Source: Candidatus Bathyarchaeota archaeon
Lineage (GTDB): Archaea; Thermoproteota; Bathyarchaeia; Bathyarchaeales; DTEX01
DNA: 64,000 nucleotides
Direction: 5' to 3'
Assembly (NCBI GenBank): GCA_963714275.1
Contig: CAVQNT010000006.1
Span: 320,001 to 384,000, forward strand
Shown: one piece after another, positions 858 through 37,349 of the stretch
How the letters are laid out: the number at the start of each line of letters is the position of its first letter
Position numbering within the stretch: the stretch's first letter is position 1
The notes under the pieces: model-generated
What the model saw: the letters and a program-made list of their open reading frames with translations, nothing else
Told to the model about the DNA's origin: nothing
Databases searched by the model: none
Position numbers and translations under genes: made by a program

Positions 858-2188
858 TTGATTGATTTGGGTTTAAGAAAGAAATTTGTGGATGGCTTGA
901 AGGTTTTTGTAGGACATAAAATCGCCACAGACGCCACTGAAACCATCGGCATCAGGGGGGCTGGAGCACAGAGCCAAGCAACTTTCGGCGACCCGATAAG
1001 TGACGCTGATCTTCTTTTCGCTGTTAAGAGGGAGCCTGTTGCTCACAGAATCGTCTTTATGGTTGCGCACGACATTTTTGACAACTGGTTCAGCGTTAAC
1101 GTCGTAGGCGAAAAGCAGGACACAAAATTTAATGATCAGATCCAAGCGGTTTTGGAGGATGAGGACCTTAATGCGAAAGCGGTCTTCACGGAGATGGCTG
1201 TTTACGAAAGGCTTTTCGGAGAAGCAATAATCGTCGTTGGATTCTCTGATTATGGGAAAGACCTGTCGAAGCCTGTTAAGGATCCTCAAAGCATCGAGGA
1301 CCTTGTTGCTTACAGTCCCCTCGAGTTCACTGTGCAATCTGCTGATGTAGACCAAGATCCGTAAAAGTCCTCGTTTTGGGCTTCCAGAATTTTACACGCT
1401 TTACCAGGGCAGCCAAAGGGTTAGGGTGCATTACAGCCGTGTGATCCATTTTGCCACAAGACTGTTAGATCATCCTTACAGGGGTCTCAGCGTCCTTGAG
1501 CCCGTGTATGATGACCTCACCGTCTTGCGGAACATCCGCTGGGGTCTTGGGCAAACAATTGTTCGTTATGGTAGCGGTTTCCCAGACATTTTGTTGAAGG
1601 GTAAAGACGCAGACAAGATTGATGAGTTTATTCTCAGTAAACAGATGGAGACCGTTAACGCCAGGACATATTTTGTGCATAACGAAAATCAAGAAGCTTG
1701 AGTTTAAGGGCGTAGGCGGAGTTACGCTTGACCCTGAAAAGTATTATGTGCCCATAATGGAAAGCATCAGCGCAGGCTCAGGGATTCCGCTGGCCATTCT
1801 ACGAGGTGCCCAGGCTGGAGCATTAACGGGGTCAGAGGTTAACGAACGGGAATATTTCAAGATTGTTAGTGACGCTCAAAGCCGTTACGAGCCTGGAGTC
1901 CGAGCCTTAATTGACATGCTTATTGAGTGTGGACAGATCCGCTGGTTCTACAATGTGCCTAAAAAGTATCGGATCAGTTGGGGAGGAGGCTTCGAGGTTA
2001 ACGAGAAGGACCGGGCTGCAACTCAACTCTCAATTGCACAGGCTTTGAGTGTCCGCTCGAACTGGATGACCTTGAACGAGATCAGGGCGTCCATGGATCC
2101 TCCGCTTGAGCCATTACCAGGACCACAGGGAGAAATCGTCCTTGGATTAGAGAAGTTACAGTCACAAAAATTGTTGTCGCCTGCTTGA
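858..2188 (+). CDS. Phage portal protein (DUF1073-like), split by frameshifts
   Basis: Joined ORFs 858-1364, 1426-1701 and 1619-2188; motifs VHYSRVIHF, GLSVLEPVYD, SGIPLAILRG and MTLNEIR are typical of DUF1073 portals; first gene of the head module. Confidence 0.8.
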
Positions 2189-2200
2189 GGAAACCGAAAA

Positions 2201-3055
2201 ATGATGAAGATTGGAACAGTCTCTTGTTGAGTTGGATTCGACAAAGATCCTGAAGGAAGACGAAGACGAATTAGTCCTTCCTGGCATCCTTGCTCGTGAA
2301 GGCGTTTTCCCTTATCCTGAAGGACGAGCGTTTAGGCCTCGGAAAGAGTTGGAGAAAGAGCATGATAACTTTTGAGGGTGCAGAAGTGGTCGGTAAGAAG
2401 CACCCTGAAACCATGATTGTAACCGATCCTGACCTCATCATCGGCAAGGTTTACCATGCAAACATTGACGAGAAGGGTTCGGTTCACGGAGAAGTTCACC
2501 TCTATCAAAAAATTGATTTCTGACGATTTAATAGCGGGGATTAAGTCAGGCGTTTTCTCGAAAAACAGCATGGGATTCCTTTACATGGAAGATGCGACGA
2601 AAGGCGAATTTAACGGTCAAGCGTATGATTATGTGCAGCGGAAGATCAAGGTTGACCATATTGCTGTTGGGGTGCCCTATCCGAGAGACCCGGGCTGCGT
2701 CCTTGGCGTCGACGACTTTTCGAGCGAAATTAAGATTGGGCTGGATCCCTGGGAGGAAACTGAGGACTTTATTCGTAGCGGTCACAAGGAGCCCAGCGAC
2801 ACTTGCAGGACGATTGTTATAAGCGAAGATCAAGGCATCAAGGCTGTTTACTGCAAATACGGGGACAGCTGGGACATTCAGAGCTTCCTTTTCGCTAAGG
2901 CAAAGAACTGGAGTATGGAGAAGGCGAAGGCTTGGTTTAGAGAACATAAAGATGCTGTTGACAGCAAGATCAAGGCTGAAATTTGTGGGATAAATGTGGA
3001 TTGCTGTCTCATCGCCTTTTCAGAGATTGAGAGGTCAAAAGGGCTTGTTTCATAG
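2201..3055 (+). CDS. Prohead protease (DUF2213-like) with C-terminal accessory domain, frameshifted
   Basis: HP motif, SMGF, GQAYDYVQRKIKVDHIAVG...CVLGVD; lies between portal and scaffold. Confidence 0.75.
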
Positions 3056-3154
3056 TCACTAGATTTCAACAATTTAGGGATAGAATTGCATCGAGATGAT
3101 GATGCTGAGACTCACGACGGGTCTTTAAACTAGCAAAAAAATGGAAAAAAGAAA

Positions 3155-3587
3155 ATGTCAAATCAGGACGGGTCAGGTGCGGAACAAAACAAAGCCATAA
3201 AGGTTACTATTGACCAGGTGATGGCGGAAAACCTAAGTTTGAAGCAGATAGTTCAAGATCTGGACCAAACTGTGAAGGATCTTACTTCTCAGCTTAAGGC
3301 TGCGAATGACATGCTTGAAGCGCAAGCGAGGGCGAAGTTGATTGCGGAAATCAAACCCCGCAGCAGATATTCTGATGAGGACTTAACGAAACTTTCGCTT
3401 GACGAACTTAACAAACATCAAGGTTACGCTTGACAACGCTAAGATGCCGAATTTCAAGAACATCCACTTCGGTCCACTTGGGATTGCGGAAGCGAAGGAC
3501 GAGGGACTAACCGTAGGAGACCTATCGGTTGTCGCGGAAGCTAAACGCAAACAGGGAGGAACTAGTTATGCCACAATTTCTCGTTAA
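3155..3587 (+). CDS. Putative capsid scaffolding protein (coiled coil; C-terminal LTVGDLS motif), frameshifted near 3410
   Basis: Heptad-rich N-terminus; ORFs 3155-3433 and 3399-3587 join; canonical position upstream of decoration and capsid genes. Confidence 0.6.
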
Positions 3588-4041
3588 ACCCGCGAACCAA
3601 GTAGTGGTTCAGGGCAACCCCATAAAGGTTGAATATGAAATCGGTGCTAATGCTACTAGTGATTGTGTTCCTGGAGCCCTTGTAATCTATGACACTGTTG
3701 CCCACGCCGTTCAAGAGGCTGGAGCCGAAGCTGACAATGTCTTAGGATTTCTCGACGTCGCAGCGGAATATCTTGAAGCTACACACTACGAGGTAGGCGA
3801 CCAAGTCCTAGTTGTCATGGGTGAATGTATCGCTAAGCTAACTTTGTTAGCAAGCGAAAGCGTCGCCCCTGGAGACTGGCTGGTGGCTGCTGGAGACGGA
3901 AAGGTCAAGAAACGCGCTGTTGGTGCTATGGGAAGCCAGGGAAGTCCGATCGGACAAGCTTTGGAAATTAGCAACGTTACTGTTGACGCTGAGATATTGG
4001 TTCATTGGATTCCGTGCGCTGAGCCTGCTGCTGCAAGTTAA
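3568..4041 (+). CDS. Capsid decoration/cement protein
   Basis: Small Ala/Gly/Val-rich beta protein (PGDWLVAAGDGKV...IGQALE) immediately upstream of the major capsid gene; GGAGG RBS before ATG 3568. Confidence 0.65.
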   Translation: MPQFLVKPANQVVVQGNPIKVEYEIGANATSDCVPGALVIYDTVAHAVQEAGAEADNVLGFLDVAAEYLEATHYEVGDQVLVVMGECIAKLTLLASESVAPGDWLVAAGDGKVKKRAVGAMGSQGSPIGQALEISNVTVDAEILVHWIPCAEPAAAS

Positions 4042-4052
4042 GGTGATATGAA

Positions 4053-4932
4053 ATGAAACCACTTATCAAGAGTTGGGTTAGAAACAGGTTCCTTAACTGA
4101 TGAAGAACTCCGTTACCTTGATAGCAGAGTTGTCCAGACAGTGAGACCTCTGCTTGTTGGTAGGCGGTTGTATCCAGTGTTCAGGCTTCCAAACGCAGGC
4201 GTAAAAACCGTGCGTGGATGGAAAGAAACGGATATGAGCCAAGCGACGATTGACATGAATGGACAAGTTGACGCTTTTGACAGGATTGAACTCGCAGAAT
4301 TCGACATTAAAGTGCCAGTGATCAGTAAAGGCTTCAGGCTTAACTGGAGAGACATTCTTGCTTCCCGCAACGGAGGGATTCCGATTGACGCTCGAAGCAT
4401 GGAGAATGCTGCTCGACAGTGCGCTGAAGAAGAAGATAAACTACTGTTGACAGGAGAAACCGCAGCTTGGAAGGCTCTGGGAATCGAAGGATTAGCTACT
4501 GCTACGGGCAAAGAAACTCAGGGTTCAGGTGGAGCTTGGGGAGCAAGCAGCATCGTTGACGTTAGTGATTGCATTGCTAAGCTCGAGGCAGGTGGACACT
4601 ACGGTCCTTACGCTTTAGTCTTAAGGTCAGCGTGGTATGCGAAGCTGAGAGCATTGATTGCTAACACAGGCATCTTTTATCTTGAAAAGGTGGCTGAGCT
4701 CGTGAAGGCTGGAATCTTCGTGAGCGACAACCTCTATTCAAGCGCTGACGCGACAAACAATCGCTTTAGTTGTTGAGCCCATCAGGAAAACTTTGAGCTC
4801 GTAGTCGGACAAGACATGAACACTTGGACTGTGCAAGACGAAAACATGAACACTAAAGGTAAAGTCTACGAAGTCGTGGCGCCCCGCATCAAAAGACCTG
4901 CATCAATCTGTATTCTTACAGGATTATCTTAG
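4053..4932 (+). CDS. Major capsid protein, HK97 fold, family-1 encapsulin (Linocin_M18)-like; frameshifts near 4068 and 4760-4780
   Basis: Reconstructed ~290 aa: LTDEELRYLDSRVVQTVRPLLVGRRLYP...VPVISKGFRLNWRDI...AARQCAEEEDKLLLTG...GHYGPYALVL...ENFELVVGQD...PASICILT, which matches the encapsulin/linocin pattern. Confidence 0.8.
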
Positions 4933-4956
4933 GGCGCCAGGTAATCCTTCACGTTC

Positions 4957-4976
4957 TTTCCCCCGTTTTTTAGGGG
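4957..4976 (+). terminator. Putative oligo-T terminator/attenuator after the capsid gene
   Basis: TTTCCCCCGTTTTTTAGGGG 25 nt after the stop codon; near-identical copy at 8672-8691. Confidence 0.4.
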
Positions 4977-4999
4977 CAACATCGTAAAAAACAAAAATA

Positions 5000-5332
5000 A
5001 TGGAGAAAAAAGGATTGCCAGAACTAATAGCGTATGCGGGACCGATAGAGACGACAGATGATTACGCAACAGCATTGAAAGTTAAGCTTCCACCACAAAT
5101 CGACAAGGCGATGGTTCACATCAAGGAGCTTGACGTCAACGATATCAAATGGAAGATTCTCGGCAGCATCGACGACAGCATCTATTTCGAGCAGATGGCT
5201 GAGGCAACTGTAAGCCAAGATGATTCTGACGTCGACGAAGTAACAAAAGCGTGGATCTATCTTGACGTTCAAGTGAAGTCTGCTGTATCTAACACTTCAG
5301 GCGAGATTTCGGTTGCAGTTTCAGGAGCCTAG
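5000..5332 (+). CDS. Hypothetical virion protein
   Basis: Intact 110-aa beta-rich ORF directly after the capsid gene. Confidence 0.55.
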   Translation: MEKKGLPELIAYAGPIETTDDYATALKVKLPPQIDKAMVHIKELDVNDIKWKILGSIDDSIYFEQMAEATVSQDDSDVDEVTKAWIYLDVQVKSAVSNTSGEISVAVSGA

Positions 5333-5337
5333 AGCGA

Positions 5338-5576
5338 TGAAGTTCAGGATCTTACCGAAAACTAAAAGCTTCAGTGATGCTCACGGTAACATATTTTATC
5401 CTGGTGACGTCGTGGATCTCCCTGTTTCTTACCTTGGAGAGACATGGCTTGAGCCCGTGGACAAGGTTGACGTCAAAAAGCCTGAGTCCAAGACTGAACC
5501 CTATGTTCGGACATTGGTTGTCCCTTTAGAGACCTCGAAGACGCAGAAGAAGGTAAAAAAAAAGTTAAAGTCCTAA
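5338..5576 (+). CDS. Small head-associated protein (DUF7210/gpFI-like position)
   Basis: FYPGDVVDLP motif and Lys-rich tail, typical of small post-capsid genes. Confidence 0.45.
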
Positions 5577-6169
5577 TCGGCGTTCCATGCCTAAATGATA
5601 AGGACAGGTATGCAGGATACAGGAATCAAAGCTTAAGTGCTGCTTTACTGTCGATCGGAGACGTAGAACACAGCGTTTATGTTTCTCAAAATTCCAGGGC
5701 AATCGAGGTTAACGGGATCGTTGAATGCGACAACGATATTGTCTCTTATTTTTTGAGCAAAGATTTCTCGCATCTCTGGATGGTTGAGCTTGACACCATT
5801 GTCCCCAAGGATGCTTTCCCCAAACTTTTTGGTTTAGACGTTGACATCGCTCTCGGCTTTTACCCTAGCCACCGTGACTTTTATAGGCTGATCGCTGGGT
5901 GGATCGGTGAGGATGCAAAGGTCTATTATCTTCCACGTTTTGCGTTGAAGGGTCAGGTCCTTAAGGGCTGGGTGTTTGCTGGGACCGGATGTATGCTCGT
6001 TAAGAGAAGGGTGTTCGAGAATGGGGGAGTCCGTTTCAAATATAATCCTGACGTCGGAGGACCTGACGTTACCTTCATGTTTGAAAGCCTGAGAAGAGGG
6101 TTTACTGCAGCCCTCCATGGAGACGTTGAATGCGGACACCTGCCTGAGTGGCCATTGAAGGAAGGTTGA
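5560..6169 (+). CDS. GT-A fold glycosyltransferase-like protein (start uncertain)
   Basis: In-frame KVLIGVPC upstream of ORF 5753; HLWMVELD (DxD-like), GTGCMLVKRRVFE, DVTF and CGHL motifs of phage GT2-like proteins. Confidence 0.6.
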
Positions 6170-6173
6170 AGAC

Positions 6174-6449
6174 GTGGGTTCGAATAATGCACAATCTGGA
6201 ACCTCTTCGAAAAAATTAGTTGATAAACATAGAATTGTTGAAAAAAAGATTTTGTTCACTCTTTTGAATGGTCCTGTGAGACTTCGTGACATTTTGAAAC
6301 ATGCTTACAGAGACTCTGCACCCGTTTACAGTGGCACCCAGGTTGTTTATTGGTTAAGAGATAACGGTTACATCCAAAAAACGGGCAAAGGTCATAACGA
6401 CCCTTACATGATCACTGAACGGGGACGGAGATATTATGATTGCACCTGA
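6174..6449 (+). CDS. Winged-helix DNA-binding protein
   Basis: WLRDNGYIQK...YMITERG wing motif. Confidence 0.6.
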   Translation: MGSNNAQSGTSSKKLVDKHRIVEKKILFTLLNGPVRLRDILKHAYRDSAPVYSGTQVVYWLRDNGYIQKTGKGHNDPYMITERGRRYYDCT

Positions 6450-6923
6450 CTCCAATAAAAAAGAAGATTTTAAAAGAGCACTATTGAGTGGGAAACAAAA
6501 CATAGCATACTCGTCGTAAGGGAAGACGGGAAATTCTTTCAAGTTTTTAGGATCCTGAAATTACGAGGGAAAATTAGTCCTTGGACCTGCTGGAAACAAA
6601 ACCGCATCTGCAAAAAGACACTGCACAGACCGCACTTAACCTGCCTCAATTGCAGAATCAGAAAATACGTGAACAGCGAAATACCTCAGACATTACAGGT
6701 TATCCCCTACATCTTGCTAGTTCAAACTAACCGTAAAAGATGGAAAAAAGCAGTCTGCAAGAAGCTGCTTTCAATCATAGAATTTCTAAGTTAAAAGTTA
6801 TGAAAATTTAAGATAAAATCCAAACTTCTCTCCGTAAAAAATAAAGAAAACACACAATGCAATAACATTTTAAATATCAAAAAAGAGTAATTCGGATTAA
6901 TCAAAGTAAAAGAGTGAATTGGA

Positions 6924-7277
6924 ATGTTTATAAATATTGTTAGATGGCGTGTTCCTAAAGCGAATAGTAAAAAGCAATTTGAGGTCTGGCGTGAAATTAT
7001 GGACTATCAGAGGTCTCATCCAGAGAAGGTTTACTACACTAGGTCTCGGTTCTTCACCTTTTCTGAAGAAGGGTCGTCTGAGGAAAACTGGATGTTTCTA
7101 GATGAGTATGAGGACCGTGAAGATTACGACAAATGGATGAAGGCTGTGCGTGAAGACCCAGAACTAATGAAACTCATGGACGATTGGTTCCCCAAATGGG
7201 ACGCTTTGATTGTTCCTGGGTCTAGGAAAGGAGAAGTCTGGACTGAAGTTGAGAAGCTCAGGGTCGAGTTCAAGTAA
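6924..7277 (+). CDS. Dimeric alpha-beta barrel (ABM/DUF1428-like) protein
   Basis: WMFLDEYEDREDYDKW pattern; intact ORF. Confidence 0.5.
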   Translation: MFINIVRWRVPKANSKKQFEVWREIMDYQRSHPEKVYYTRSRFFTFSEEGSSEENWMFLDEYEDREDYDKWMKAVREDPELMKLMDDWFPKWDALIVPGSRKGEVWTEVEKLRVEFK

Positions 7278-7416
7278 GTATGTGCGTTAAAAGTTAGCTG
7301 ACTCCCGAAATTATTAATCATGATTATCTCTTTTTTGCATTAAAGTTGTGTTGCGTGGTAAGTTATTTAGGTTTAGTTCAATAAAATTTTTATTTTTCAA
7401 TACTGAATAAATATTT

Positions 7417-7845
7417 ATGCCTTCAGTTAAGAGGATGTTTCTGGTTTGGCAAGGAAACTATCGTTTCACAGCGAAAAATGAAAAGGGGCTTTCTGTTAAT
7501 TTTGATGCTCCCTTACCAAATGGTGGAGAAGAAACTGCACTATCACCAATGGAGAATGTACTAGCAAGTTTAGCTGCATGCAGCAGTTATCATGTTGTAT
7601 CGATATTGAGAAAGAAGAGGCAAGATTTTTCAGGTTATTCAGTAGAAATGACAGCGGATAGAAGAGATGAACCACCGAGAATATTTACCAACATTCAGCT
7701 CAAGTACATCATTAAAGGAAAAAACATTAGTAAAGAGGCTGTTGAAAGCGCAATAAGACTTTCTGAAGAAAAATATTGCTCAGTCGGTGGAATGTTGAAG
7801 AACGCAGTAAAAATAACATCTTCATATGAGATATCTAAAGAATAA
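7417..7845 (+). CDS. OsmC/YhfA family protein
   Basis: SPMENVLASLAACS and SEEKYCSVG with the two conserved Cys. Confidence 0.9.
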   Translation: MPSVKRMFLVWQGNYRFTAKNEKGLSVNFDAPLPNGGEETALSPMENVLASLAACSSYHVVSILRKKRQDFSGYSVEMTADRRDEPPRIFTNIQLKYIIKGKNISKEAVESAIRLSEEKYCSVGGMLKNAVKITSSYEISKE

Positions 7846-8010
7846 TAAGCCGACTAAAATATTGACTGCGAGAGCTACAGTTTTCCAAATTACAGGAAGT
7901 ATCTAGTTAAACAATAAGAACTTTCTTCCTTTGTACATCTTGTTCTTAAGCTTTGTTTCGAAGATATTCAAGTACATAATTGACATACTGGGTGGGGGAG
8001 TAACAGTTAT

Positions 8011-8031
8011 ATATATAACAATGTTACATAT
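8011..8031. promoter_or_regulatory. Palindromic operator upstream of the PadR gene
   Basis: ATATATAACA-A-TGTTACATAT (9/10 inverted repeat) about 25 nt before the PadR start. Confidence 0.45.
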
Positions 8032-8057
8032 ATGGCAATTAGGAGGAGATTAACAAA

Positions 8058-8453
8058 ATGTGCAGTTCGAATCGTTGCCATTGTTGGCATGATTACCCTG
8101 AACGAGGTTGGATACAGTTTCTCATGCTCAGAATTCTGTATGAGAAGCCGATGCACGGTTATCAGCTCATGGAAGAAATTGTGGAAAAAAGTTGTGGTTG
8201 CCACAAGATAAAAACAGGATCCATTTACACGCTTCTGAGAAGGATGGAAGAAAGAGGTCTGCTTGAGTCCAGATGGGAAAAGGTCGAAGGAGGACCGGAC
8301 AAAAGAGTCTACACTGTAACGGGGAACGGTGTTGAAGCGCTTAGAATGGGTCTCAAGTCGATTGTGAAGAGGAAAATGCTCTTCGACGATTTGGCAAGGT
8401 TCTACGTAGAACATTTCGAGAATAGTGAGGGAGGTGAAAAACCAGATGTGTAG
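8058..8453 (+). CDS. PadR family transcriptional regulator
   Basis: PMHGYQLMEEI, GSIYTLLRRMEERGLL and KRVYTVT motifs. Confidence 0.9.
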   Translation: MCSSNRCHCWHDYPERGWIQFLMLRILYEKPMHGYQLMEEIVEKSCGCHKIKTGSIYTLLRRMEERGLLESRWEKVEGGPDKRVYTVTGNGVEALRMGLKSIVKRKMLFDDLARFYVEHFENSEGGEKPDV

Positions 8454-8655
8454 AGAAGAAGAAGATTGTTGTTGCGGTGGGGAAGCCCATGAGGGCCATC
8501 ACGGAGGGTTCAGCGGTCATCACGGTCGTCACATGGGCTACGGCTTTCCTTTGATGAGCATTGAGGAAGAGGTTAAGGTTCTGGAAAAGATGAAGACGAC
8601 CTTTGAGGAACGCTTGGATATCGTGAACAAGCGGCTAGAGATTCTGAAGCGCTAA
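8447..8655 (+). CDS. Small Cys/His-rich coiled-coil protein (DUF5320-like)
   Basis: CCCGG/HHG-rich N-terminus and EEEVKVLE...VNKRLEIL coiled coil. Confidence 0.6.
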
Positions 8656-8710
8656 AACTTAACGCTTCAAATTTCCCCCGTTTTTTTGGGGATTAGCATA
8701 AGATCAGGAA

Positions 8711-9735
8711 GTGATGGTAAAGGTGCAAACAGAATATGCTGTTGAGGTTTCGAACTTAACAAAGAAGTATGGTGATCTAGTAGCTGTCGATCACGTAAAT
8801 TTCAGTGTAAGGAAGGGAGAGATTTTTGGGTTCCTAGGTCCAAATGGAGCAGGAAAGACGACTACGATACGGATGTTGACGGGAGTTTCAATCCCGACAG
8901 AGGGGACAGCAATAATCATGGGATATGACATCCAACGTCAACCCATTGAGGCCAAGGAGCAGATGGGAATAGTCCCCGATATCAGCAATGTCTATAATGA
9001 GCTCTCCGCTTGGGACAATCTCGTTTTCACTGGCAAACTCTACGACATGCCCAAGACATATCGGGAGAGTCGCGCCGAAGAACTACTCAAAATGTTCGGC
9101 CTTTATGAACGGAGGACAGAAAAAGTGCAAGGCTTTTCAAGAGGAATGAAGAGACGAATCTGCATTGCTATGGCTCTTATGAATAAGGCAAGCATCCTCT
9201 TCTTAGACGAGCCTACATCGGGCCTTGATGTACAGAGCGTCCTAATAATTCGAGATTTGATTAGAAGCTAAACCAGAAGGGGCTAGCAATCTTTGTCACA
9301 ACTCATAATATTGAGGAGGCAAACCAGATGTGCGACCGCGTAGCAATCATCAACCACGGTAAAATAGCAGCCATCGACACTCCTGAGAAGCTTAAAAGGA
9401 CGATGGAAAGCCTTCAGTCTGTTGAAGTCGCCTTCGAAACCACACCGCCAAGTGCCTTGAAGGAACTTGGTGAACTACAAAAAGTCAGCGAGGTGATGAA
9501 GGAAGGCGACAAGTTCAGACTCTTCACCCAAGAACCACCTAGCGTTCTGACCGAAATATGGCAATACTCCCAAAGTAACAACCTTAAGCTCGTTACCCTC
9601 AATACTCTCGGTCCGAGTTTGGAAGACGTTTTCGTGAAGCTAACAGGTATTGGACCTGCGACGGCAAAAGAGGAAACGGAAAAAACGGGTCCGAGCGACA
9701 TACAAAGAAAGACTCAGAGAAGGGGAGATCAATAA
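8711..9735 (+). CDS. ABC-2 exporter ATP-binding subunit (frameshift near 9268)
   Basis: GPNGAGKTT, FSRGMKRR, LFLDEP, THN and PSLEDVF motifs. Confidence 0.9.
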
Positions 9736-10493
9736 TGGACAGACATTCAAGCCACTATGGCAGGGAGATACGAGTAGCATGGGCAATCACTGTCAAGGAC
9801 ATGCGTACCTACTACACGCGGCCACCATCCCTTATGTTCGGGATACTTTTTCCATTCAGCCTTTTCCTGTCGTTCAGCATCGGAAGGAACGTGCCTTTAG
9901 CTGCACAGATACCGATCCTTATTTCTCAGACACTCTTCTTTGCTTCATCTTCCATAGGTCCCGTGGTAATACCCAGCGAACGTGCCAACCAGACCTTTGA
10001 CAGGTTCTTAACCTCGCCAGTTTCCCTTCTCTCCATCCTAATTGGAAAGACTCTTGCTGGAATCATCTACGGCGCTGGAATATCCGTCATTCCCGTCTTA
10101 GTTGGTATAGTCTTCTTCGGATCTCAGATAACCAACTTTGGAGCCTTGATTGCTTGCTTTGCGCTGTCCTCTCTCGCCTTCTCAGCATTAGGAATCATGT
10201 TTGCCTCAATTCCAGGTCAAACTCCAGGTCAGGTGATGATGCCTCTCAACTTCGTTCGCATACCCCTACTCTTCATAAGCGGTGTCTACTCACCTATCCG
10301 AGAGCTGCCAACATGGATGCAGGTGGTCTCTATGCTTTCGCCTCTGACTCACACCGTTGAACTCGCGAGATATGCCTCAGGCGGAGAGACCTTCTTCGGT
10401 CCAATCCTCAACACAGTAATTCTAACAATATATGCTGCGGCTTTCCTCTTCATAGGTATTCGTTTCCACATTATGAATCAGCGTAAGGAGTAA
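9735..10493 (+). CDS. ABC-2 exporter permease
   Basis: Six TM segments; FISGVYSPIRELPTW...SPLTH. Confidence 0.9.
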   Translation: MDRHSSHYGREIRVAWAITVKDMRTYYTRPPSLMFGILFPFSLFLSFSIGRNVPLAAQIPILISQTLFFASSSIGPVVIPSERANQTFDRFLTSPVSLLSILIGKTLAGIIYGAGISVIPVLVGIVFFGSQITNFGALIACFALSSLAFSALGIMFASIPGQTPGQVMMPLNFVRIPLLFISGVYSPIRELPTWMQVVSMLSPLTHTVELARYASGGETFFGPILNTVILTIYAAAFLFIGIRFHIMNQRKE

Positions 10494-10525
10494 CGTGAAA
10501 ATCTGTAGGAAGGTGGAGAAGGCAT

Positions 10526-10837
10526 TTGGGATTAGAGGTCTGGGATTTAATTAAATTAGCAGAATTTTCAAAGACTCAAAGAGTTAAGAAAGAACTTTGT
10601 AAGACAAAGTGGTTCAATATTGTCCTTGTTTGTCTTGAAACTGGTCAGGAGATTCCTCCTCGTCCAGAACCTTATGAGGTTTGCTTCTATGTTATAGAAG
10701 GCCAAGGCACTTTTACGGTAGGCGACAAACAAGCAGAACTGAACGCAGGTTCAATGATTTTTGCTCCTGCCAATGTTGCACGCGGAATAAAAAGCGCAAA
10801 ACGTTTAAGCGTCCTTGGAATACAGCAGGCACACTAA
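10526..10837 (+). CDS. Cupin domain protein
   Basis: FYVIEGQGTFTVG...IFAPANVARG; metal-binding His positions appear replaced by Arg. Confidence 0.8.
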   Translation: MGLEVWDLIKLAEFSKTQRVKKELCKTKWFNIVLVCLETGQEIPPRPEPYEVCFYVIEGQGTFTVGDKQAELNAGSMIFAPANVARGIKSAKRLSVLGIQQAH

Positions 10838-10925
10838 TCTCTGGATTGTGGAAAAATAAATAGAAAGACATCCACAACTCTAATGTAACCTCGAATATGT
10901 TACGCTTGGGCATTATATCTTTTAG

Positions 10926-11249
10926 TTAGATGGTCCAGTAAGAATGAAGCTTCAAGTCTTTACTTTTCACTTCGGCTCTCACAAATTCCACGACGTCTTC
11001 GTCCCTTATGTAAAGGTTTCCTGACTTGTCAGTGTGCAACGGTATGCCTGTCTTTCTAAGGCGATTCCCAACTGCGTTATCAATAAAAACATATTGTTTT
11101 TCGACAGCTGGCAAGATAAGCCTGAGACCTGTAAGGTGTCTAGCTGATACTCCCCGTTCAATATTGTAAGCAATGCTTTTGGGAGCATGCTCGATAATTA
11201 GTCGCTTGAACTCATCCCACGAATTCACCCTAACAACTCTATCGTTCAA
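10926..11249 (-). CDS. Conserved hypothetical archaeal protein
   Basis: Intact ORF with RBS-like sequence upstream. Confidence 0.55.
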   Translation of the reverse strand: MNDRVVRVNSWDEFKRLIIEHAPKSIAYNIERGVSARHLTGLRLILPAVEKQYVFIDNAVGNRLRKTGIPLHTDKSGNLYIRDEDVVEFVRAEVKSKDLKLHSYWTI

Positions 11250-11324
11250 ACACGTGATTCCCTCATTCTATCGCAATCACAGACCGTATACAAGTCAGGT
11301 ATGACTGTAAGTCGAGTCAACTAG

Positions 11325-11582
11325 CTAGACCCTTAAAATAGCATCTTCGAGATTTTTCTCGTCAAAATCTGAAGGTATCTTGATTTTTCCATTTACAACC
11401 ACGCACGTGTCTTGTACTCCGTATTTCGACGCTTCAGATGACTTGATTGACTTTGTTTGAACTTCTACCGAATCTTTGAACTTCAACGTTACATGTACCA
11501 CTTTTTCCATGAGCGGCGCGAAATTGCAGACACAAGAGCCTAGAGGCACAAAGACTTCGACCTTGATTTTATTATTCTTCAT
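11325..11582 (-). CDS. Thioredoxin-fold protein (CVC motif)
   Basis: SCVCNF...ASKYGV...VVVNG. Confidence 0.65.
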   Translation of the reverse strand: MKNNKIKVEVFVPLGSCVCNFAPLMEKVVHVTLKFKDSVEVQTKSIKSSEASKYGVQDTCVVVNGKIKIPSDFDEKNLEDAILRV

Positions 11583-11585
11583 CTT

Positions 11586-12281
11586 TCACCATCCTTCCAA
11601 CATATAAACAATCATGATTATGCCAATTAAAATAAAGGCTATTCCAAAAATCTTTGTTAACCATTCACCTGCTTCAGAAATTTTTTGGCTTACTGCCTTG
11701 CGTGCAGTCGCCATCAAGACACTTAAGAAGACAACTGGTAAGGCATGACCCAGCCCAAACATCAAGAGTAGCAGACCACCGTGAAAGGGTGTCGGTGCAC
11801 TGAACATGGTTAATAATATGGCAGGCAAAACCAGTGATAGGGAACATGGACCTAAAGCGAAGGAGATGACTACCCCGAAAAGAAATGAACCCATTACATA
11901 GTTATATCTGGAAAATCGCGTCAACGAATTCCACCTCAAAGTATTTACTCGCTCAGTCAAAGAACTAGATTTTGAATGACGAATTTTTTTAAGTAAACCC
12001 AGATTGTTAATTCCAAAAAGAACAAGAAAAGCCCCTGAAATGCCAAGAAAAGTCGGTAGTTGGCTGCGTTTATTGGAATAAGAGAAGACACAGCGTAACC
12101 GAGAAAAAAGAAAACTAGACACATGGCTAAGGCAAGCTGACAGCCAACCACAAATCCCTTCCTTATATTCTTACTCATTCCAGTGGCATAGGTCAGATAC
12201 ACGGAAATGAGAGCGATGGAACAGGGTGAAAGAAAAGTTGTAATGCCTAAAAGGAACAAACCCGCATATTCACCTAACATA
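11586..12281 (-). CDS. ccdA: CcdA/DsbD-type cytochrome c biogenesis / disulfide reductase membrane protein, frameshifted
   Basis: TFLSPCS and LGPCS conserved Pro-Cys motifs in the two joined ORFs; FGLGHALP. Confidence 0.75.
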
Positions 12282-12897
12282 TTTATCAAACTCCAGAAGT
12301 TTATAGATTTTCGACGACAATGTCTCAGCTGCTGTTTCGTCGGTATACACCTGTACCACATTGAATTCTTTATCTATAAGAACAATGGTTCCATCATAGA
12401 TCGAGTATATTACATAAGCATCGATGATGTCCAATGTTCTCATCAGCATAGTCATTTCCCAAGTACCAAGTGATACCGTAATCTGTCGCGAATGAGTGCA
12501 AGGTCGGTAGTTGGGCATGTTGACACCACGACGGTTACTATAGTAACAGAATTATTCCACAATAAGTATTACATACAGTTTTTAATTGCTTAAGTTGATT
12601 GTAATTTATAACTTGATATTGTCCATAGCAGCCTAAAGTCATGAAATGAATCAGCGATTACATTTCCACTATATTGATTGAGCGAAAATTGAGTTCCGTT
12701 TATGTCTTTCAGAGAGAAGTTTGGAGCCGAGCCTGTTAGCGAGGATTGCTATTCGTTTCACCTCCAATTATTGGAGGAAGCTGAACTTGGTATTGCCAGT
12801 ACTCATACGCCTATGAATATTAAGGCTAAACAGACAAATTCCGACAATTATTTTGCCTTTAGGCCAACTTTTCGGTTTTTTCTTCTTTGATATTTTT
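12270..12897 (-). CDS. Membrane-anchored TlpA/redoxin-like protein, heavily frameshifted
   Basis: Manual minus-strand reading gives APNFSLKDINGTQFSLNQYSG and TIVLIDKE; upstream of ccdA. Confidence 0.55.
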
Positions 12898-13057
12898 CTT
12901 TTAAGCATAATTTTTGTTCCTCAGCTATTAGCGCGCGCCCTAAGCCTTCTCGTCGTTATCTCCATTCATGTCATTACTTTTCGAACAATCGATTTTCCTA
13001 TATTCATCCCAGTTATTGATTCGATAAATACCCAAGGCTCATATCACATAATTCGAT

Positions 13058-13479
13058 TTATATGACTCGTATCTCAGGTTCAATTACTAATTCAGCTTTG
13101 ATTGATTGGGCTACAAGACTGAACTTTTCTGCTAACTTTAAAGCACGTCTAACCGCCTCTTCTCTGCAGTTACGAACTTTTATCTTTGGTCTAAGCATCA
13201 TCTTTTTGAAAACTGAAGTGCGGTCCAGTAGATCCTCAACAAGCCTTCAGCCTCACACTCGTAGGAAACCAAGTCAATCTTCAATTTCTCAACACTCCAG
13301 ATGAACATCAACTGGAAACACATATTCAAAGCACCTACAAAGGCATCCTCAGGGGTAAGCACATTGGGTTGGCCATATAATGCTGCTGGAGCTGAGAAAT
13401 CCATTCGTGCGCCGTTGCTACACGTTATCTCCCCTATGTGACCTCCCTTCCAAATGGCTGTCGTCTTGTATGATGGCAT
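13058..13479 (-). CDS. OsmC family protein (SACOL1771-like), frameshifted
   Basis: TPEDAFVGALNMCFQL motif; C-terminus SLVAQSIKAELVIEPEI in another frame. Confidence 0.75.
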
Positions 13480-13507
13480 GTCTCCTCATCTACCTCTTGT
13501 GAAGATA

Positions 13508-13894
13508 TCATCCATAGCAGTCAGCAATCTCTTCAGCCACTTTTGAGGCTGCTTCTATTCCCTCTTCGTTTAGTTCTCGCCTTGGACTAGGATTCTTCAC
13601 ACCCCATTTTTTCAGCAGATCGGAAACCACTATTGAACATGCTGTCTTCCCACTGTATTTCTCGATGGCTTTCTTAGCACATCTCTTCTCGCAGCCATCA
13701 ACCGCTATGGTTGGGAAGTACTTGGCGAACATCCTCTCGCCCTTCTCTCCAATTGAGAAGAGAGGAAGACAGATCGTTACAGTATTATCAGGTCTCAATT
13801 TTTCTAAGACAAAGCGGGTGGCTATCCTAGAGATAGTTCCCTCGACACAGCATTCGCCACTGCAGGAGACAACTCCAATCTTAGGTGTGCTCAT
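13508..13894 (-). CDS. DGC-domain putative zinc-binding protein
   Basis: VVSCSG, TICL and IAVDGCEKRCA motifs. Confidence 0.85.
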   Translation of the reverse strand: MSTPKIGVVSCSGECCVEGTISRIATRFVLEKLRPDNTVTICLPLFSIGEKGERMFAKYFPTIAVDGCEKRCAKKAIEKYSGKTACSIVVSDLLKKWGVKNPSPRRELNEEGIEAASKVAEEIADCYG

Positions 13895-14301
13895 GAAACA
13901 ACACCTTTATGGTTCAATTCATCTACCTTCAATGCAATCTTCTCAGCCAATATTCTAGATAATTTTCGTCCATCCTCGTCAAGAAAGGTTACACCATTAG
14001 GTTTTAGGTTTCTGTTTTCCCTAAGAATGTCGACAACTCTGAAACTTGCGACTAATTTGGCGTCTGAGAGTTCAAGGTTTTTCTTTGCGCATTCATTAGG
14101 ACAGCCGTCCACGGCGATGCATCGATGAGATTTAACTGAGCGTCTGGCATCTTCATCGCCCATTACGAGTAGGGAGAGACAGAGGGTGTCTGTTTCATCT
14201 TTCTTCAGGTCTTCGACAACACAGTATGTTGCATCTCTACTGATGGTACCGAAGGACTTCCCTATGCCGCTGCAGGGAATAATTAAGACTGGATCAGACA
14301 T
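13891..14301 (-). CDS. DGC-domain putative zinc-binding protein (paralog)
   Basis: IPCSG, TLCL and IAVDGCPNECA motifs. Confidence 0.85.
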   Translation of the reverse strand: MSDPVLIIPCSGIGKSFGTISRDATYCVVEDLKKDETDTLCLSLLVMGDEDARRSVKSHRCIAVDGCPNECAKKNLELSDAKLVASFRVVDILRENRNLKPNGVTFLDEDGRKLSRILAEKIALKVDELNHKGVVS

Positions 14302-14304
14302 GTT

Positions 14305-14773
14305 CTATACCTCCTTCTTACTACTCTTCCTCAGTTCATCCTTAATCTTTGATTTCATCAACTCAAAGTATTTCTCTGCTGTCATGAGATGCTGCTTATC
14401 TTCTTCAAGATTGGAGGGAGAGATTAGGACAAGCCAGCCTTCTCCATAGGGATCCTCGTTAATTAATTCAGGCTTATCATTCAGTGTTGCATTGACTTCT
14501 GTAATGGTGCCGTCGAAAGGAGAGACTATTGACACGACTGCCTTTATTGTTTCGAAACTCGAAATTTCATCTCCTCGTCTTACAGTCTTTCCTTTTTGTG
14601 GAAGTTCCACGAATACGGCGTCTCCTCCTCGTCTTTGGAGAAAGTCAGTTATGCCGATTTTGGCTTTGCCATTTCTCAATCTCAATCCAGACATCATTCT
14701 CCGTGTAGAGAAGACCTTTTTTTACCGTGAAGATGAACTTGTCAGCTACTTCCTGATAAAAATCATCACTCAT
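14305..14773 (-). CDS. Glycine cleavage H-like lipoyl-carrier protein (frameshifts in 5' part)
   Basis: IGITDF, FETIKAV (lipoyl Lys), INEDPYGEGWL; N-terminus MSDDFYQEVADKFIF read manually from ATG 14773. Confidence 0.85.
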
Positions 14774-14801
14774 ACTGGTCACTTCAAAACATTATTTGGG
14801 A

Positions 14802-14989
14802 TTAAGACTGTTTTTTCTTTGCTTGACAATCGAAGCAGTAATCACTGTCAGAGTTTGTCCAGAAGACTTTACCGCAGTCTGGGCAGGTTGCTTTTCTTAG
14901 TAAGTCGTTCTTTGGAGGACAGCTGCTCGAAGTAGGTCTTGTAGGTTTTGTGTGCAGGCGCATCCTTTTTGTGTCTCGTTTTTAGACAT
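14802..14989 (-). CDS. Small Cys-rich protein (CAC plus CPDC/CFDC), not in the ORF track
   Basis: Manual reading across frameshifts: GCACTQNLQDLLRAA...LLRKATCPDCGKVFWTNSDSDYCFDCQAKKKQS*. Confidence 0.5.
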
Positions 14990-15138
14990 CTCTCTTAGCC
15001 TCTTTGGCGTTAGGAGATTATAGATATTAATATATTTAAATTTATCGAATTATTGCATTGAATCAAAATATTTAAATATATTGTACAAGGCAAGATAGTA
15101 TTGAAGAATTTTACTGATGTGCAACGAAATGCAGACTA

Positions 15139-15550
15139 ATGGAGAAGCAAAAGGAGCACTAAAAGGCTTGAGAGGCTTGTCTGCTCAGGTTTACGACCAG
15201 AAGAGGACCTGGAGAAATACGCGATTGAACTGAAGACTATGGCTGATGAAGCAACAGATGAGAAAACGATTGATACTAAGACACGACTCTTAAAGGCGCT
15301 GGCCAATGAAACGAGACTGAAGATGTTGAAACTCCTCAGCAAGAGGGAAATGTGCGTCTGTGAGTTGACAGTCGCCTTAGACTTAACCCAGCCAACTGCA
15401 TCCCATCATCTCAATATACTGGAAAATATGGGGTTGATAAAGGACAAGAAGAAGGGAAAGTGGGTATTCTACAGTGTTACCAACCCTGAATTAACCCAAC
15501 ACTTCTTCGACTTCCTAGGATTAAAAAGTAAATCCAAAAAAAGATTCTAG
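15139..15550 (+). CDS. arsR: ArsR/SmtB family As(III)-responsive repressor
   Basis: ALANETRLKML, EMCVCEL metal-binding box, SHHLNIL and GKWVFYS; upstream of acr3 (start uncertain). Confidence 0.85.
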
Positions 15551-15643
15551 TTTTTCATAGCTCAATAGTAGAAATCAATAGATTTAAATATTTAGATATG
15601 ATAAGTCTAGCTAAATCCATGATTGTAAGAGGAATCTTAGTGA

Positions 15644-16679
15644 ATGGCATCCGCAACTCAAGAAACTGAAGAAGTAACTCTCGGTATTTTCGAAAAATAT
15701 CTCACGCTATGGATAGCAATATGCATCGTCGTTGGTCTACTCTTAGGCAGGTTCTTACCCCAGTTTGGTCAGTACTTAGACTCTCTGAAGTTCGGTCAGA
15801 TATCGATCCCCATCGGCATACTTCTCTTCCTCATGATGTATCCGACCGTTGTCGGCATCAGCTTCAGCGACGTCAAGAAGGCGACCAAGTTCCCAAAGCC
15901 CATGCTAATCACAATAATCGCCAACTGGGTTATAGCCCCACCACTAATGGCACTCTACGCAAACTTTTTCCTCAAAGGAAACCCACAATTCATCGCAGGC
16001 GCAATTCTTCTAGGGATTTCGCCATGCACCGCCATGGTCCTCTGGTGGATAAAGATGGCTCGAGGCGACCTCGGCCAAGGCCTAGTAAACACGGCAATCA
16101 ACGCCCTTCTTATGATTGCACTCTACGGCACCGAAGCTGCCTTCTACTTGGGGGTCAGCAGTATACCTGTCCCTTGGGACCTTATCGTTTGGAGCGTCAT
16201 ACTCTTCATAGCTGTCCCAGTAAGCCTCGCAGCACTCACCAGAAGGACTCTTCTACTTAGCAAAGGCGAGGCTTGGTTCGAAGGACGATTCAGACCAATA
16301 CTTAGGAAAAATCTCGATCATAGCCCTACTCACAACCCTCATAGTCATGTTTTCACTGCAAGGAGAGATAATTCTCACCCAACCTCTCACAGTCGCTCTA
16401 ATCGCCGTTCCCCTCCTGGTCCACTACGCATCGATGATAGCTATCACTTATGGTGCATGCTGGTTTACGAATCTTGACTATAAATCCGCAGCACCCACCG
16501 TTCTCATTGGCTCAAGCAGCCATTTTGAGGTTGCGATCGCTGTCGCTACAACCCTCTTCGGTCTAGGATCTGGTGCTGCTCTAGCCACCGTAATAGGCCC
16601 TTTGATGGAGGTACCCCTTATGATTTCACTAACGAAGTTCTCTGGCATACCAGAGGCAAATTTCCCAAATCTAAACTAG
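15644..16679 (+). CDS. acr3: Acr3 arsenite efflux transporter (frameshift near 16310)
   Basis: FEKYLTLW, LMMYP, SPCTAMV, SHFEVAIAVA and GPLMEVP motifs. Confidence 0.9.
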
Positions 16680-16725
16680 GAAAATAATTAAAATTTAAAT
16701 AGAAGGGAGAAAAAGGTGAGAATTT

Positions 16726-17484
16726 ATGGATAAAAAGAAAACAAAAAATGTTGTTAAAGAGAGATATGCATCAATTGCTCAAACTAAAGGTTCCTGTTGC
16801 TCATCCTCCTGCTGCGATACTAGAGATCTCACTGAAATCGGGAAAAAAGTAGGATACACTGAAGCCGATTTGAGAAACGTGCCTGAGGCTGCGAACATGG
16901 GTCTTGGCTGTGGTAACCCAGTTGCATTGCGTCTCTTAAGAAAGGAGAAGACTGTCCTAGACCTGGGTTCTGGAGGCGGAATCGATGTCTTTCTTGCAGC
17001 CAAGAAAGTCGGGTCCAAGGGAAAGGTCATCGGTGTGGACATGACGGATGCGATGGTTAAACGAGCTAAATTGAATGCTGTCAAGAACGGTTATAAAAAC
17101 GTCGAGTTCAGACTGGGCGAGATTGAGAAGCTTCCCATTGACGATGAATCAATAGATGTTATCATCAGCAACTGCGTCATCAACCTCTCAACAGATAAAG
17201 ATCAGGTATTCAGAGAAGCTTATCGCGTCCTGAAGACGGGTGGTAGGCTCATGGTCTCAGATTTGGTGACTGAGGGTGAGCTTCCAGAAGAGGTACGGAA
17301 AAGCTTCGACGCATGGGCATGCTGCATCGGTGGCGCCCTAGAGAAGCAACAGTATCTGGAAAGTATCAGGAAAGCAGGTTTCAAAGACGTTCAAATACTC
17401 TCAGAGGTAGCCTACGATATTGATGTATCTAGAGAGTTGAATGGAAAGATAACGAGCGTTCATGTTGAAGCCTACAAGAAGTAG
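16726..17484 (+). CDS. arsM: Arsenite S-adenosylmethionine methyltransferase
   Basis: SCC..CC, GLGCGNP, LDLGSGGGID, ISNCVINL and WACCIGGA motifs. Confidence 0.92.
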   Translation: MDKKKTKNVVKERYASIAQTKGSCCSSSCCDTRDLTEIGKKVGYTEADLRNVPEAANMGLGCGNPVALRLLRKEKTVLDLGSGGGIDVFLAAKKVGSKGKVIGVDMTDAMVKRAKLNAVKNGYKNVEFRLGEIEKLPIDDESIDVIISNCVINLSTDKDQVFREAYRVLKTGGRLMVSDLVTEGELPEEVRKSFDAWACCIGGALEKQQYLESIRKAGFKDVQILSEVAYDIDVSRELNGKITSVHVEAYKK

Positions 17485-17702
17485 ATGGCAACAAAAAACG
17501 TGCGTAATAGACGAGTTATACGCTACTAACATCGTCTTTCACAATAGCTTGCTAACCGTTAATTGAGCCTTTTTACTAGCTCACTACAGATTTTATGACT
17601 CTTACTTTAAGATAAAGACTTTAAGATGCAGAATCATAGAGTCCTGATTATAGATTATTTCGCCAAAATAAGTTAAATATAGTCTTATTTACATAGTTTG
17701 TT

Positions 17703-18053
17703 ATGCCCTACTGCGACAGTGACGATGTCCGCCTAGTTTGTGGCGTCGCAGAGAACGTTATCAGCAGCGGAGACATCGGTGGACTGATTGTTTACAGCGA
17801 TCAGGAAATCGATGACATTATAGGCAGTAGTTTCGGGGAGTCTGTGCCTACACGGATTAACCGTTTGTCGGCTCTTTTGACGTCTATCCAGATTTATAGT
17901 CGCCCTGACCTTCGTTTCCGTCTTGGACAAGCTGGCATAAACGAGCAGCAATTAGAGAAGAATCTTGAACGTTGGCAGGCTGAAGCTGACGAGATTTTCG
18001 AGTTTTACAGTGATGATGAAGGTTCTGGAGAGTTCAGGGTGGCTCAGGCATGA
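17703..18053 (+). CDS. Head-tail adaptor (gp6/gp15-like)
   Basis: MPYCDSDDV N-terminal motif; virion operon resumes here. Confidence 0.6.
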   Translation: MPYCDSDDVRLVCGVAENVISSGDIGGLIVYSDQEIDDIIGSSFGESVPTRINRLSALLTSIQIYSRPDLRFRLGQAGINEQQLEKNLERWQAEADEIFEFYSDDEGSGEFRVAQA

Positions 18054-18502: not shown

Positions 18503-18622
18503 GAAGACTTATTCGAGCTTCACTGCTTGGCGGTTTGATTCTTTTGGACGCTCGAGTTGCTTTAATCGCAACAGTCGGCGTGTCGTCAGGGTTATTGATT
18601 AAAAAATGGAGGAGGGAGATAC

Positions 18623-19073: not shown

Positions 19074-19077
19074 TGAA

Positions 19078-22574: not shown

Positions 22575-22579
22575 AAAAG

Positions 22580-23404: not shown

Positions 23405-23422
23405 GTTTCATGGTGATTAAAA

Positions 23423-36237: not shown

Positions 36238-36239
36238 TA

Positions 36240-37292: not shown

Positions 37293-37349
37293 TTTCGAGC
37301 GCCTTGAGTTGAAAAATGGTATATTATATATCGCCAAAAGACAGTTGAG

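Follow-up and report, generated by a model that had tools for sequence, protein, structure and literature searches.

A scaffolding protein with an encapsulin targeting-peptide-like motif beside an encapsulin-like capsid gene in a tailed provirus from Bathyarchaeota

A 64,000-nucleotide stretch of contig CAVQNT010000006.1 (positions 320,001-384,000; Candidatus Bathyarchaeota archaeon), referred to below as the window, was analysed by sequence comparison. The window holds a tailed provirus whose head module occupies the first 6.6 kb on the + strand, the genes for portal, protease, scaffold, minor capsid protein and major capsid protein being contiguous (858-4932). The scaffolding protein, encoded two genes upstream of an encapsulin-like capsid protein, carries the motif LTVGDLS at 3507-3527. 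This motif is likely to be the anchor by which the scaffold docks into the encapsulin targeting-peptide pocket of the capsid. Such docking had been proposed in the first-pass annotation, made from the DNA letters alone, and is supported by comparative evidence: the same motif is borne by the cargo of a sister clade of cellular encapsulins, and capsid residues R37 and D254 are invariant where the peptide occurs.

The scaffold motif and the capsid

The scaffolding protein (3155-3587, +) consists of a coiled coil, from 3155 to about 3470, followed by a linker, the putative anchor and a basic tail. The linker PLGIAEAKDEG (3474-3506, +) is variable, acidic and glycine-rich, with low information at alignment positions 107-116. 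The putative shell-docking anchor LTVGDLS (3507-3527, +) is the best-conserved block and resembles encapsulin targeting peptides. The tail VVAEAKRKQGG (3528-3563, +) is also conserved, with KRK in at least 90% of homologues. When the protein was compared with Pfam, coiled-coil families only were matched, all under the cut-off (DivIC, E 4e-05), and among solved structures a sequence search yielded nothing beyond weak matches to coiled coils (geminin, Mediator; E no better than 0.055). A small coiled-coil protein encoded between the protease and capsid genes is what is seen for phage scaffolds, and a short conserved motif near the C-end, with hydrophobic anchors around a glycine and a flexible linker before it, is what is seen for targeting peptides.

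Homologues were searched with the intact 148-aa scaffold of the related locus L006 as the query; 195 were found, of which 120 were listed. Among the matches listed, T[VIL]G.[LIMF] was present within 25 residues of the C-end in 114 of 120, and 105 of these 114 have LTVGDLS exactly; the remaining six look truncated, frame-shifted or extended. An alignment of 103 rows (A3) was built from 101 of the 120 listed homologues and two sequences translated from loci, with 12 near-duplicates and 7 truncated or odd rows (P0022, P0025, P0036, P0040, P0073, P0100 and P0102) omitted. Since six of the seven odd rows lack the motif near the C-end, the conservation figures from this alignment are slightly raised. 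Conservation over seven residues peaks at 118-124 (4.20 of 4.32 bits), where T119 and G121 never vary and L, V, D, L and S are each conserved to at least 95%. The ten preceding residues are among the least conserved of the alignment. Across 1.63 million six-frame residues of the genome, LTVG.L occurs eight times. The scaffold had also been read as ending in ...EGLTVGDLSVV. The motif stands exactly at 3507-3527, but it is not C-terminal: the intact 136-aa homologues P0061, which is the closest intact homologue, and P0075 continue with VV[AT]EAKRK and four further residues (12 in all).

The scaffold gene contains a frame break near 3405 and is read in two frames, 3155-3433 and 3399-3587; a 1-base loss near 3560 probably extends the frame of the window copy to 3587. 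The frame was checked by comparison over 3100-5000 with contigs of related strains from four independent sediment or wetland runs. One base at 3405 is missing in seven contigs from the four runs (X1, 1; X2, 1; X3, 3; X4, 2), and when this base is dropped the motif is joined to the coiled coil. As intact P0061 reads from the coiled coil straight into the motif, the motif is in the right frame. Contigs from the other runs also show indels at 3560/3566, 4062 and 4757-4782, which are the frame-break sites of the window, and the two copies of the scaffold gene on the contig (see below) bear different 1-base indels. The capsid gene has three breaks, near 4062, 4757 and 4782. Housekeeping-type genes were also found to be split: an upstream P-type ATPase gene lies in three pieces (L004 7938-10334) and an ABC ATPase gene in two (window 8711-9735). 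The large number of genes interrupted by single-base breaks, among them housekeeping ones, points to an indel-rich assembly.

The major capsid gene (4053-4932, +; ATG start at 4053) encodes an encapsulin-like protein of 292 aa of the Linocin_M18 family. Window 4141-4776 matched Pfam Linocin_M18 (PF04454) with E 1.3e-24 and 87.3 bits (cut-off, 24.3), and PF04454 is precomputed for 120 of 120 capsid homologues among the matches listed; a capsid alignment (A2) was made from 108 of these 120 (283-303 aa) and three capsids from loci. Residues 12-290 of the intact paralogue from the second head module were aligned by HMMER with residues 10-280 of EncA of Myxococcus xanthus (E 1.9e-37). The T4 shell of Quasibacillus thermotolerans matched the capsid with E 1.7e-33, and the encapsulin of Thermotoga maritima only with E about 2e-05, the best solved relatives of the capsid thus being EncA and the Q. 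thermotolerans shell. Since the capsid is aligned end to end with EncA, there would be no room for a delta domain, which fits the earlier reading of the protein as family-1 encapsulin-like and without a long N-terminus of that kind. The size, 292 aa, is that of such shells and, judged from the alignment, the N-helix region is included. Phage records gave 12 matches to the capsid out of 50,697, all at 20-29% identity. The close homologues P0130 and P0142 are named 'family 1 encapsulin nanocompartment shell protein [Candidatus Bathyarchaeota archaeon]' by NCBI.

Distribution of the motif and the pocket residues

Related loci were collected from one GTDB genome, one genome of the same order and IMG/VR (14 + 30), giving 46 in total, mostly viral contigs. 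The IMG/VR contigs are classed as viral, and one provirus, which carries a terminase, is rated 100% complete. An open reading frame (ORF) of 90-200 aa lies two genes upstream of the capsid gene in 41 of the 46 loci, and the motif is found near its C-end in 34 of these 41; in other frames of at least 90 aa of the same loci, used as a control, T[VIL]G.[LIMF] was found in 1 of 1503. The motif, whose absence from homologous scaffolds would have counted against the first-pass proposal, is conserved both among the listed homologues and across related viral loci. Its variants in scaffolds include LTVGSL, MTVGSL, TTVGSL/NL, WTVGDL, LTIGDM and MTLGDL. Exceptions include LTVP.KFRFG (L067 and L068), FTMPDLY (L077) and the distant phage-type locus L051. 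A second viral clade (clade B) has capsids about 42% identical to that of the window, and the one scaffold aligned is 29% identical. Clade B tails such as ...NRLTVGCLYHKKEQ and ...GLTVGDLFHKE have the motif 4-6 residues from the C-end, after a linker rich in G, S, T and E. A nested viral subclade (L065, L085 and L088) was seen to have lost the TVG tail of the scaffold, the tails there being unrelated (e.g., ...TYLHSLYQGRSRRN). The protease-scaffold fusions of the cultured phages Brevundimonas StAshley and Citrobacter K1M, which have distant Linocin-like capsids, contain no TVG motif; the motif is therefore not general to all phages with such capsids.

Capsid relatives were further sought by a profile-free search of 1.84 billion representatives, which gave 822. 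In a FastTree tree of 131 representatives, a clade of 52 rows, with a Chloroflexota 'family 1 encapsulin' among them, lies apart from the viral groups; among ten intermediate capsid representatives only three bear cluster names. Metagenomes were then scanned with four members of the encapsulin clade, and 80 loci were obtained, 60 of them with at least 600 nt upstream of the shell gene. In 35 of these 60, a same-strand ORF ending 0-180 nt before the shell gene carries the same type of tail, examples being VLTVGSLIDSE, ILTVGSMFGKK, FTVGSLIEQK, LTIGSLKEGGEK and GLTVGSLFGRPQWE. The likeness extends past the core, as seen when the cargo tail ILTVGSLFGKK is set beside the viral scaffold tail RMTVGSLFGKTRDE. 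Six of the motif-bearing cargo ORFs were scanned and matched the Pfam families EncFtn-like/rubrerythrin, ferritin and IMEF_Flp (E 1.3e-51). Homologues of the viral portal, protease, scaffold and minor capsid protein were found in none of the 80 encapsulin loci by tblastn with viral queries at E 1e-3 or better. The same search of 27 viral loci, as a control, found portal, protease and the minor capsid protein of the window's clade (clade A) in 23-26, the scaffold in 17 and the clade B minor capsid protein in 13. As the encapsulin loci keep the motif without portal or protease, its job cannot depend on either.

The shell pocket was compared with that of EncA. In EncA the L, V and L of the LTVGSL peptide, bound in the groove of the M. 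xanthus shell, lie in pockets P1-P3, with polar contacts to R28, R34, D38, D213 and D243 (Kwon et al. preprint, in the part available). In the shell of Klebsiella pneumoniae, R34 and D229 bond the peptide backbone and D38 pairs with the terminal lysine, as given in the available part of PMC10960027. By analogy with that shell, we read R34 and D243 of EncA as the residues that would hold the backbone. The five EncA contacts correspond to R31, R37, P41, A219 and D254 of the capsid (HMMER alignment; expected letters, offset one), so that R31, R37 and D254 of the targeting pocket are kept and P41 and A219 are not the EncA residues. R37 and D254 are together present in all 34 viral capsids whose scaffold bears the motif and in all 35 encapsulins whose cargo bears it. 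In distant phage capsids, R37 is found in two of seven and D254 in one of seven. Five viral capsids with other scaffold tails were included in the tree described next, and three of them, those of the nested subclade L065, L085 and L088, have P at position 254.

A shell tree was calculated for 90 shells by a quick IQ-TREE search with Shimodaira-Hasegawa-like approximate likelihood ratio test (SH-aLRT) support; it was rooted on distant phage capsids, and capsids shorter than 270 aa were left out. Three groups were obtained as a trichotomy: viral clade B (9 rows, support 98), a viral clade that contains the paralogue of the window's capsid (33 rows, 98) and an encapsulin clade (43 rows, 100). The last is made up of the 35 shells with motif-bearing cargo and eight fused archaeal encapsulins, which belong to the phylum of the host. 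The FastTree tree likewise leaves the three clades as a trichotomy. The outgroup branches are long and two of the seven outgroup rows fall inside the ingroup, so no firm claim is made on the direction between virus and encapsulin. The simplest reading of the trees would be that the pair of peptide and pocket predates the split of the three clades.

Docking model and alternatives

In the proposed model, the N-terminal coiled coil of about 100 residues would oligomerise the scaffold, and the variable acidic linker of about 10 residues would give reach to the anchor. LTVGDLS would dock, like an encapsulin targeting peptide, in the groove that each subunit has between its N-helix and P-domain; L118, V120 and L123 would fill three hydrophobic pockets, with G121 as a hinge, while the peptide backbone would be held by R37 and D254 of the capsid. 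Scaffold oligomers bridging subunits in this manner would lead to procapsid assembly around the portal, and the scaffold would later be cleared by the DUF2213 protease and DNA packaging. Encapsulin cargo loading would be the same docking step, kept without portal, protease and DNA.

Capsid-binding elements of scaffolds are known from other phages. The helix-turn-helix of P22 gp8 attaches to the inside of the capsid next to the N-terminal helix; an encapsulin-type peptide binds in extended form. In phage 80alpha the last 16 residues of the scaffold bind beside the capsid N-arm helix, and the satellite protein CpmB copies the C-end of that scaffold and competes for the site (PMC5644958, available part). 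The anchor proposed here would resemble the 80alpha element (a helix-and-hook with RIIK, common to SaPI1 CpmB) and that of P22 gp8 in being a short capsid-binding element at the C-terminal side of an oligomeric helical scaffold. In contrast, no sequence likeness is seen, their elements are helical and their capsids are not Linocin_M18-like.

The closer likeness is to the family-1 targeting peptides, which include LTVGSLRR in M. xanthus and TVGSLIQ in Q. thermotolerans (PMC10960027, available part). With the peptides of M. xanthus EncB/C/D and Q. thermotolerans IMEF the scaffold motif shares the L-T-V-G-x-L core, the three hydrophobic anchors and the hinge glycine. The peptides also lie near the C-end after a flexible linker, with basic residues following, and the shells are close homologues, the equivalents of R34 and D243 being kept. 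The two differ in that the carrier here is no enzyme but a coiled-coil scaffold encoded among portal, protease and tail genes, that the scaffold has D (or C/N) for S, that 12-15 residues follow the motif in the window's clade and that the equivalents of D38 and D213 are lost. With the EncA-like T3 and T4 shells of the Linocin_M18 family, the capsid shares the Pfam family, the length, the N-terminal helix region, the full-length alignment and the tree group; it differs in its viral context, where no cargo enzyme is present. A genome of about 30 kb would presumably need a shell larger than T3 or T4.

Several observations weigh against docking. In the window's clade 12-15 residues come after the motif, and the solved encapsulin peptides end at most two residues past the last leucine of the motif (PMC10960027, available part). 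Of the EncA contacts, D38 and D213 are not kept, the capsids having P41 and A/G219; we read this, after the fact, as fitting the absence of R or K directly after G.L in the scaffolds. R37 and D254 might be conserved for reasons of fold alone, and the link between motif loss and proline at 254 goes back to one or two evolutionary events. The loci share ancestry with each other, and several are near-duplicates (L072/73, L085/88, L091/92 and L041/42), so the counts overstate independence. Lastly, the window copy carries frame breaks, which may come from an indel-rich assembly or from a decaying provirus.

It is unlikely that the likeness to targeting peptides is convergent or coincidental, with the block acting inside the scaffold (for example, as a strand of the oligomer) and docking left to other residues. 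The motif is indeed short, the positions outside T-V-G vary (L/M/W/T before, S/D/N/C after) and the D38 and D213 equivalents are missing. However, the likeness exceeds the core, with TVGSLFGK in one scaffold and one cargo; the three clades in which the motif occurs group together in the shell tree; and it always stands near the C-end behind a variable linker, a pattern nearly absent from the control frames (1/1503).

A role of the motif as the recognition or cleavage site of the DUF2213 protease, or as an exit signal of the scaffold, in place of a capsid anchor, is quite unlikely. The protease gene lies directly upstream of the scaffold gene, and scaffolds of protease-bearing phages are usually degraded. 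Against this role, the same tail is carried by ferritin-like and IMEF cargo in the encapsulin loci (35/60), where no protease homologue was found (0/80), and the LTVGSL peptide is bound in the M. xanthus shell groove. The protease-site and anchor roles are compatible with each other.

Binding of the motif to the portal or to another head protein, such as the minor capsid protein, in place of the major capsid protein is very improbable. Some phage scaffolds do also contact the portal, and the gene for the minor capsid protein stands between those for scaffold and capsid; yet encapsulin loci keep the motif without a portal or minor capsid homologue, and in the major capsid protein R37 and D254 go hand in hand with the motif. 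This reading and the protease site both lose weight, as the motif persists in encapsulin loci that have neither partner.

It is possible, and is put forward tentatively, that the TVGxL peptide is inherited and already docked an internal protein in the ancestor of the two viral clades and the EncA/IMEF-type encapsulins. If so, cargo loading would be scaffold docking taken over by enzymes, or the reverse, and the peptides would be interchangeable between viral procapsids and encapsulins.

The provirus, its surroundings and the proposed link to encapsulins

The head module begins with the portal gene (858-2188, +), found in three frame pieces (858-1364, 1426-1701 and 1619-2188) that match Pfam Phage_portal_3 (E 1.6e-10 and 1.8e-06) and PHROG 146, portal (E 2.3e-14); the homologue in L006 is intact (444 aa). 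The gene for the DUF2213-type head maturation protease (2211-3055, +), also in frame pieces, matches Pfam DUF2213 (E 9.2e-08) and the head maturation protease of PHROGs (E 4.5e-08). The DUF2213 proteases were seen to end in a conserved motif of their own, EIER[AS]RRLLES and variants (EIER[AS]..L), at about 3020-3055 in the window and in L006, L039-L042 and L063-L089; the protease may thereby have a targeting signal of its own for entry into the procapsid. A minor capsid (decoration or cement) protein of 157 aa is encoded at 3568-4041 (+) and was recognised from its L006 homologue, which matches Pfam XM1_gp53_minor_capsid (30.5 bits; cut-off, 27); the equivalent gene position in phage K1M is annotated 'capsid stabilizing protein'. 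After the capsid gene, small conserved head-module genes (5000-6449, +) encode proteins of 110 aa, 87 aa, a 138-aa piece and 91 aa, all common to the second copy of the module. The 138-aa piece has a longer, 201-aa form in L006, and the 91-aa protein is taken, by reading of the sequence, for a putative winged-helix regulator.

Connector and tail genes (tail terminator, Neck1, tape measure and distal tail proteins) are found at 17703-27580 (+), with matches to PHROG 78 (E 5.3e-06), PHROG 5 (Neck1; E 2.1e-25) and PHROG 58 (tape measure; E 2.5e-30). The gene for the large terminase subunit, in two frame pieces, is at 29412-30625 (+) and matches Pfam Terminase_6N (51.9 bits) and PHROG 2 (E 7.7e-33); Terminase_6C gave 20.2 bits, under its cut-off. 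The tail and terminase genes lie 13-25 kb downstream of the capsid gene, beyond an inserted gene island. This island of about 11 kb (window 6900-17500) consists of host-like genes, whose translations read as OsmC-like, PadR-like, ABC transporter and thiol-disulfide proteins and as an ArsR/ACR3/methyltransferase (arsenic-resistance) cluster. In the relative G061, unrelated genes are likewise inserted between the head and tail modules. A portal/protease/tail/terminase operon had been described in the first-pass annotation; the genes are all present, on the same strand and as a provirus, but since the island splits the head genes from the tail and terminase genes they do not form one operon.

Portal, protease, scaffold, connector, tail and large terminase are thus encoded together with the capsid, as for a tailed virus (Caudoviricetes), and the host is probably a bathyarchaeon. 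The nearest named genome record is a Bathyarchaeota metagenome-assembled genome. That the locus is a cellular encapsulin system or a domesticated particle, with the 136-aa protein as its cargo, is highly improbable: NCBI names close homologues of the capsid as encapsulin shells and the second head module has no tail or terminase gene seen in 18 kb, but the window has portal, protease, minor capsid, connector, tape measure and large terminase genes on one strand, related contigs are classed as viral (one a complete provirus with terminase), and the 136-aa protein, the motif-bearing product upstream of the shell gene, has no enzyme domain.

A second head module was observed on the same contig, 256 kb away (L005, positions 56001-74000; module at L005 7644-13425). 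It runs from the portal gene through the putative winged-helix gene and is 80-87% identical to the window copy; by blastn, window 948-6593 is collinear with L005. Its capsid gene is intact (L005 10864-11739) and encodes 292 aa, 91% identical to the capsid of the window. No tail or terminase gene was seen when the ORF translations of the 18-kb L005 stretch were read, no family search having been made there. The copy is flanked by a tRNA-Thr gene (L005 3429-3504) and an integrase-like gene (L005 16702-17409); no attachment-site repeats were found around it, only short imperfect matches. The copy may represent a remnant or, alternatively, a satellite-like element with head genes only.

Downstream of the provirus, the window contains type I restriction-modification-like genes, as read from their translations (35900-42916, -), a tyrosine integrase gene (49088-50308, +; Pfam Phage_integrase, E 5.8e-18) and a tRNA-Ala gene (59479-59556, -). 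LTVGDLS recurs exactly in just one other place in the genome, a 99-aa ORF (window 56670-56969, +) in which the anchor is present twice, as ELTVGDLSIAKERQ and DVTIGDLSIAQKD. The ORF has few relatives: P0402 keeps both repeats (ELTVGDLSIVTERKRQK and DVTIGDLSITQKD), the relative in a genome of the same genus has RLTVGDLSTVTEKRRKE and GLSIGDLYEG, and P0403 has one degenerate repeat only. In P0402 and the same-genus relative, the likeness of the first repeat takes in the entire scaffold tail, LTVGDLSVVTEAKRK. The ORF is followed by a gene for an AAA_15/AAA_21 ATPase that matches the PADLOC entries NsnB (E 8.3e-41) and AriA (E 4.1e-32); the regions 57131-58513 and 58515-58850, beside the ORF, are listed with this defence-type ATPase. 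Speculatively, the product of the 99-aa ORF may compete for the capsid pocket or sense it, or the likeness may be due to chance; by analogy, it could act like SaPI1 CpmB, which copies the C-end of the helper scaffold.

Linocin_M18 capsids have been reported in viruses, together with groups in which viruses and encapsulins are mixed; the same authors propose that what a shell does is set by the protein inside it, be it cargo or scaffold (Aguilar et al. 2026, PMC13669383, main text). Whole cargo and scaffold folds are compared there, at 4-18% identity, and a shared docking peptide is not described in the main text, in which 'targeting peptide', 'loading peptide' and 'CLP' have no occurrence. A 'fossil provirus' encapsulin was described in Sulfolobus (Heinemann 2011, cited in the available part of PMC8346489), and 'scaffold' does not occur in that part of the same paper (Andreas and Giessen 2021, PMC8346489). 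No paper linking scaffold docking to encapsulin peptides was found in literature searches that included the motif strings, subscription journals and supplements being outside their scope. The Linocin_M18 capsids of viruses and the parallel between cargo and scaffold are therefore already known, and it is the shared, putative docking peptide that would tie scaffold docking to cargo loading.

As a 'family 1 encapsulin' in Bathyarchaeota can be a virus capsid, encapsulin surveys need to take genome context into account. Provirus capsids may be included in censuses based solely on names or Pfam, and Aguilar et al. show in their tree an 'archaeal encapsulin from Bathyarchaeota' that might be such a case.

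The presence of one peptide on the scaffolds of two viral clades and on the cargo of their sister clade, with the pocket residues kept in all three, provides a molecular bridge between virus and encapsulin. Encapsulins are widely held to descend from HK97-type virus capsids; to our knowledge, no account has been given of how such a capsid acquired its enzyme loading. Cargo loading may amount to scaffold docking in which another protein is carried, and viral procapsids of this kind might take up tagged proteins as encapsulins do.

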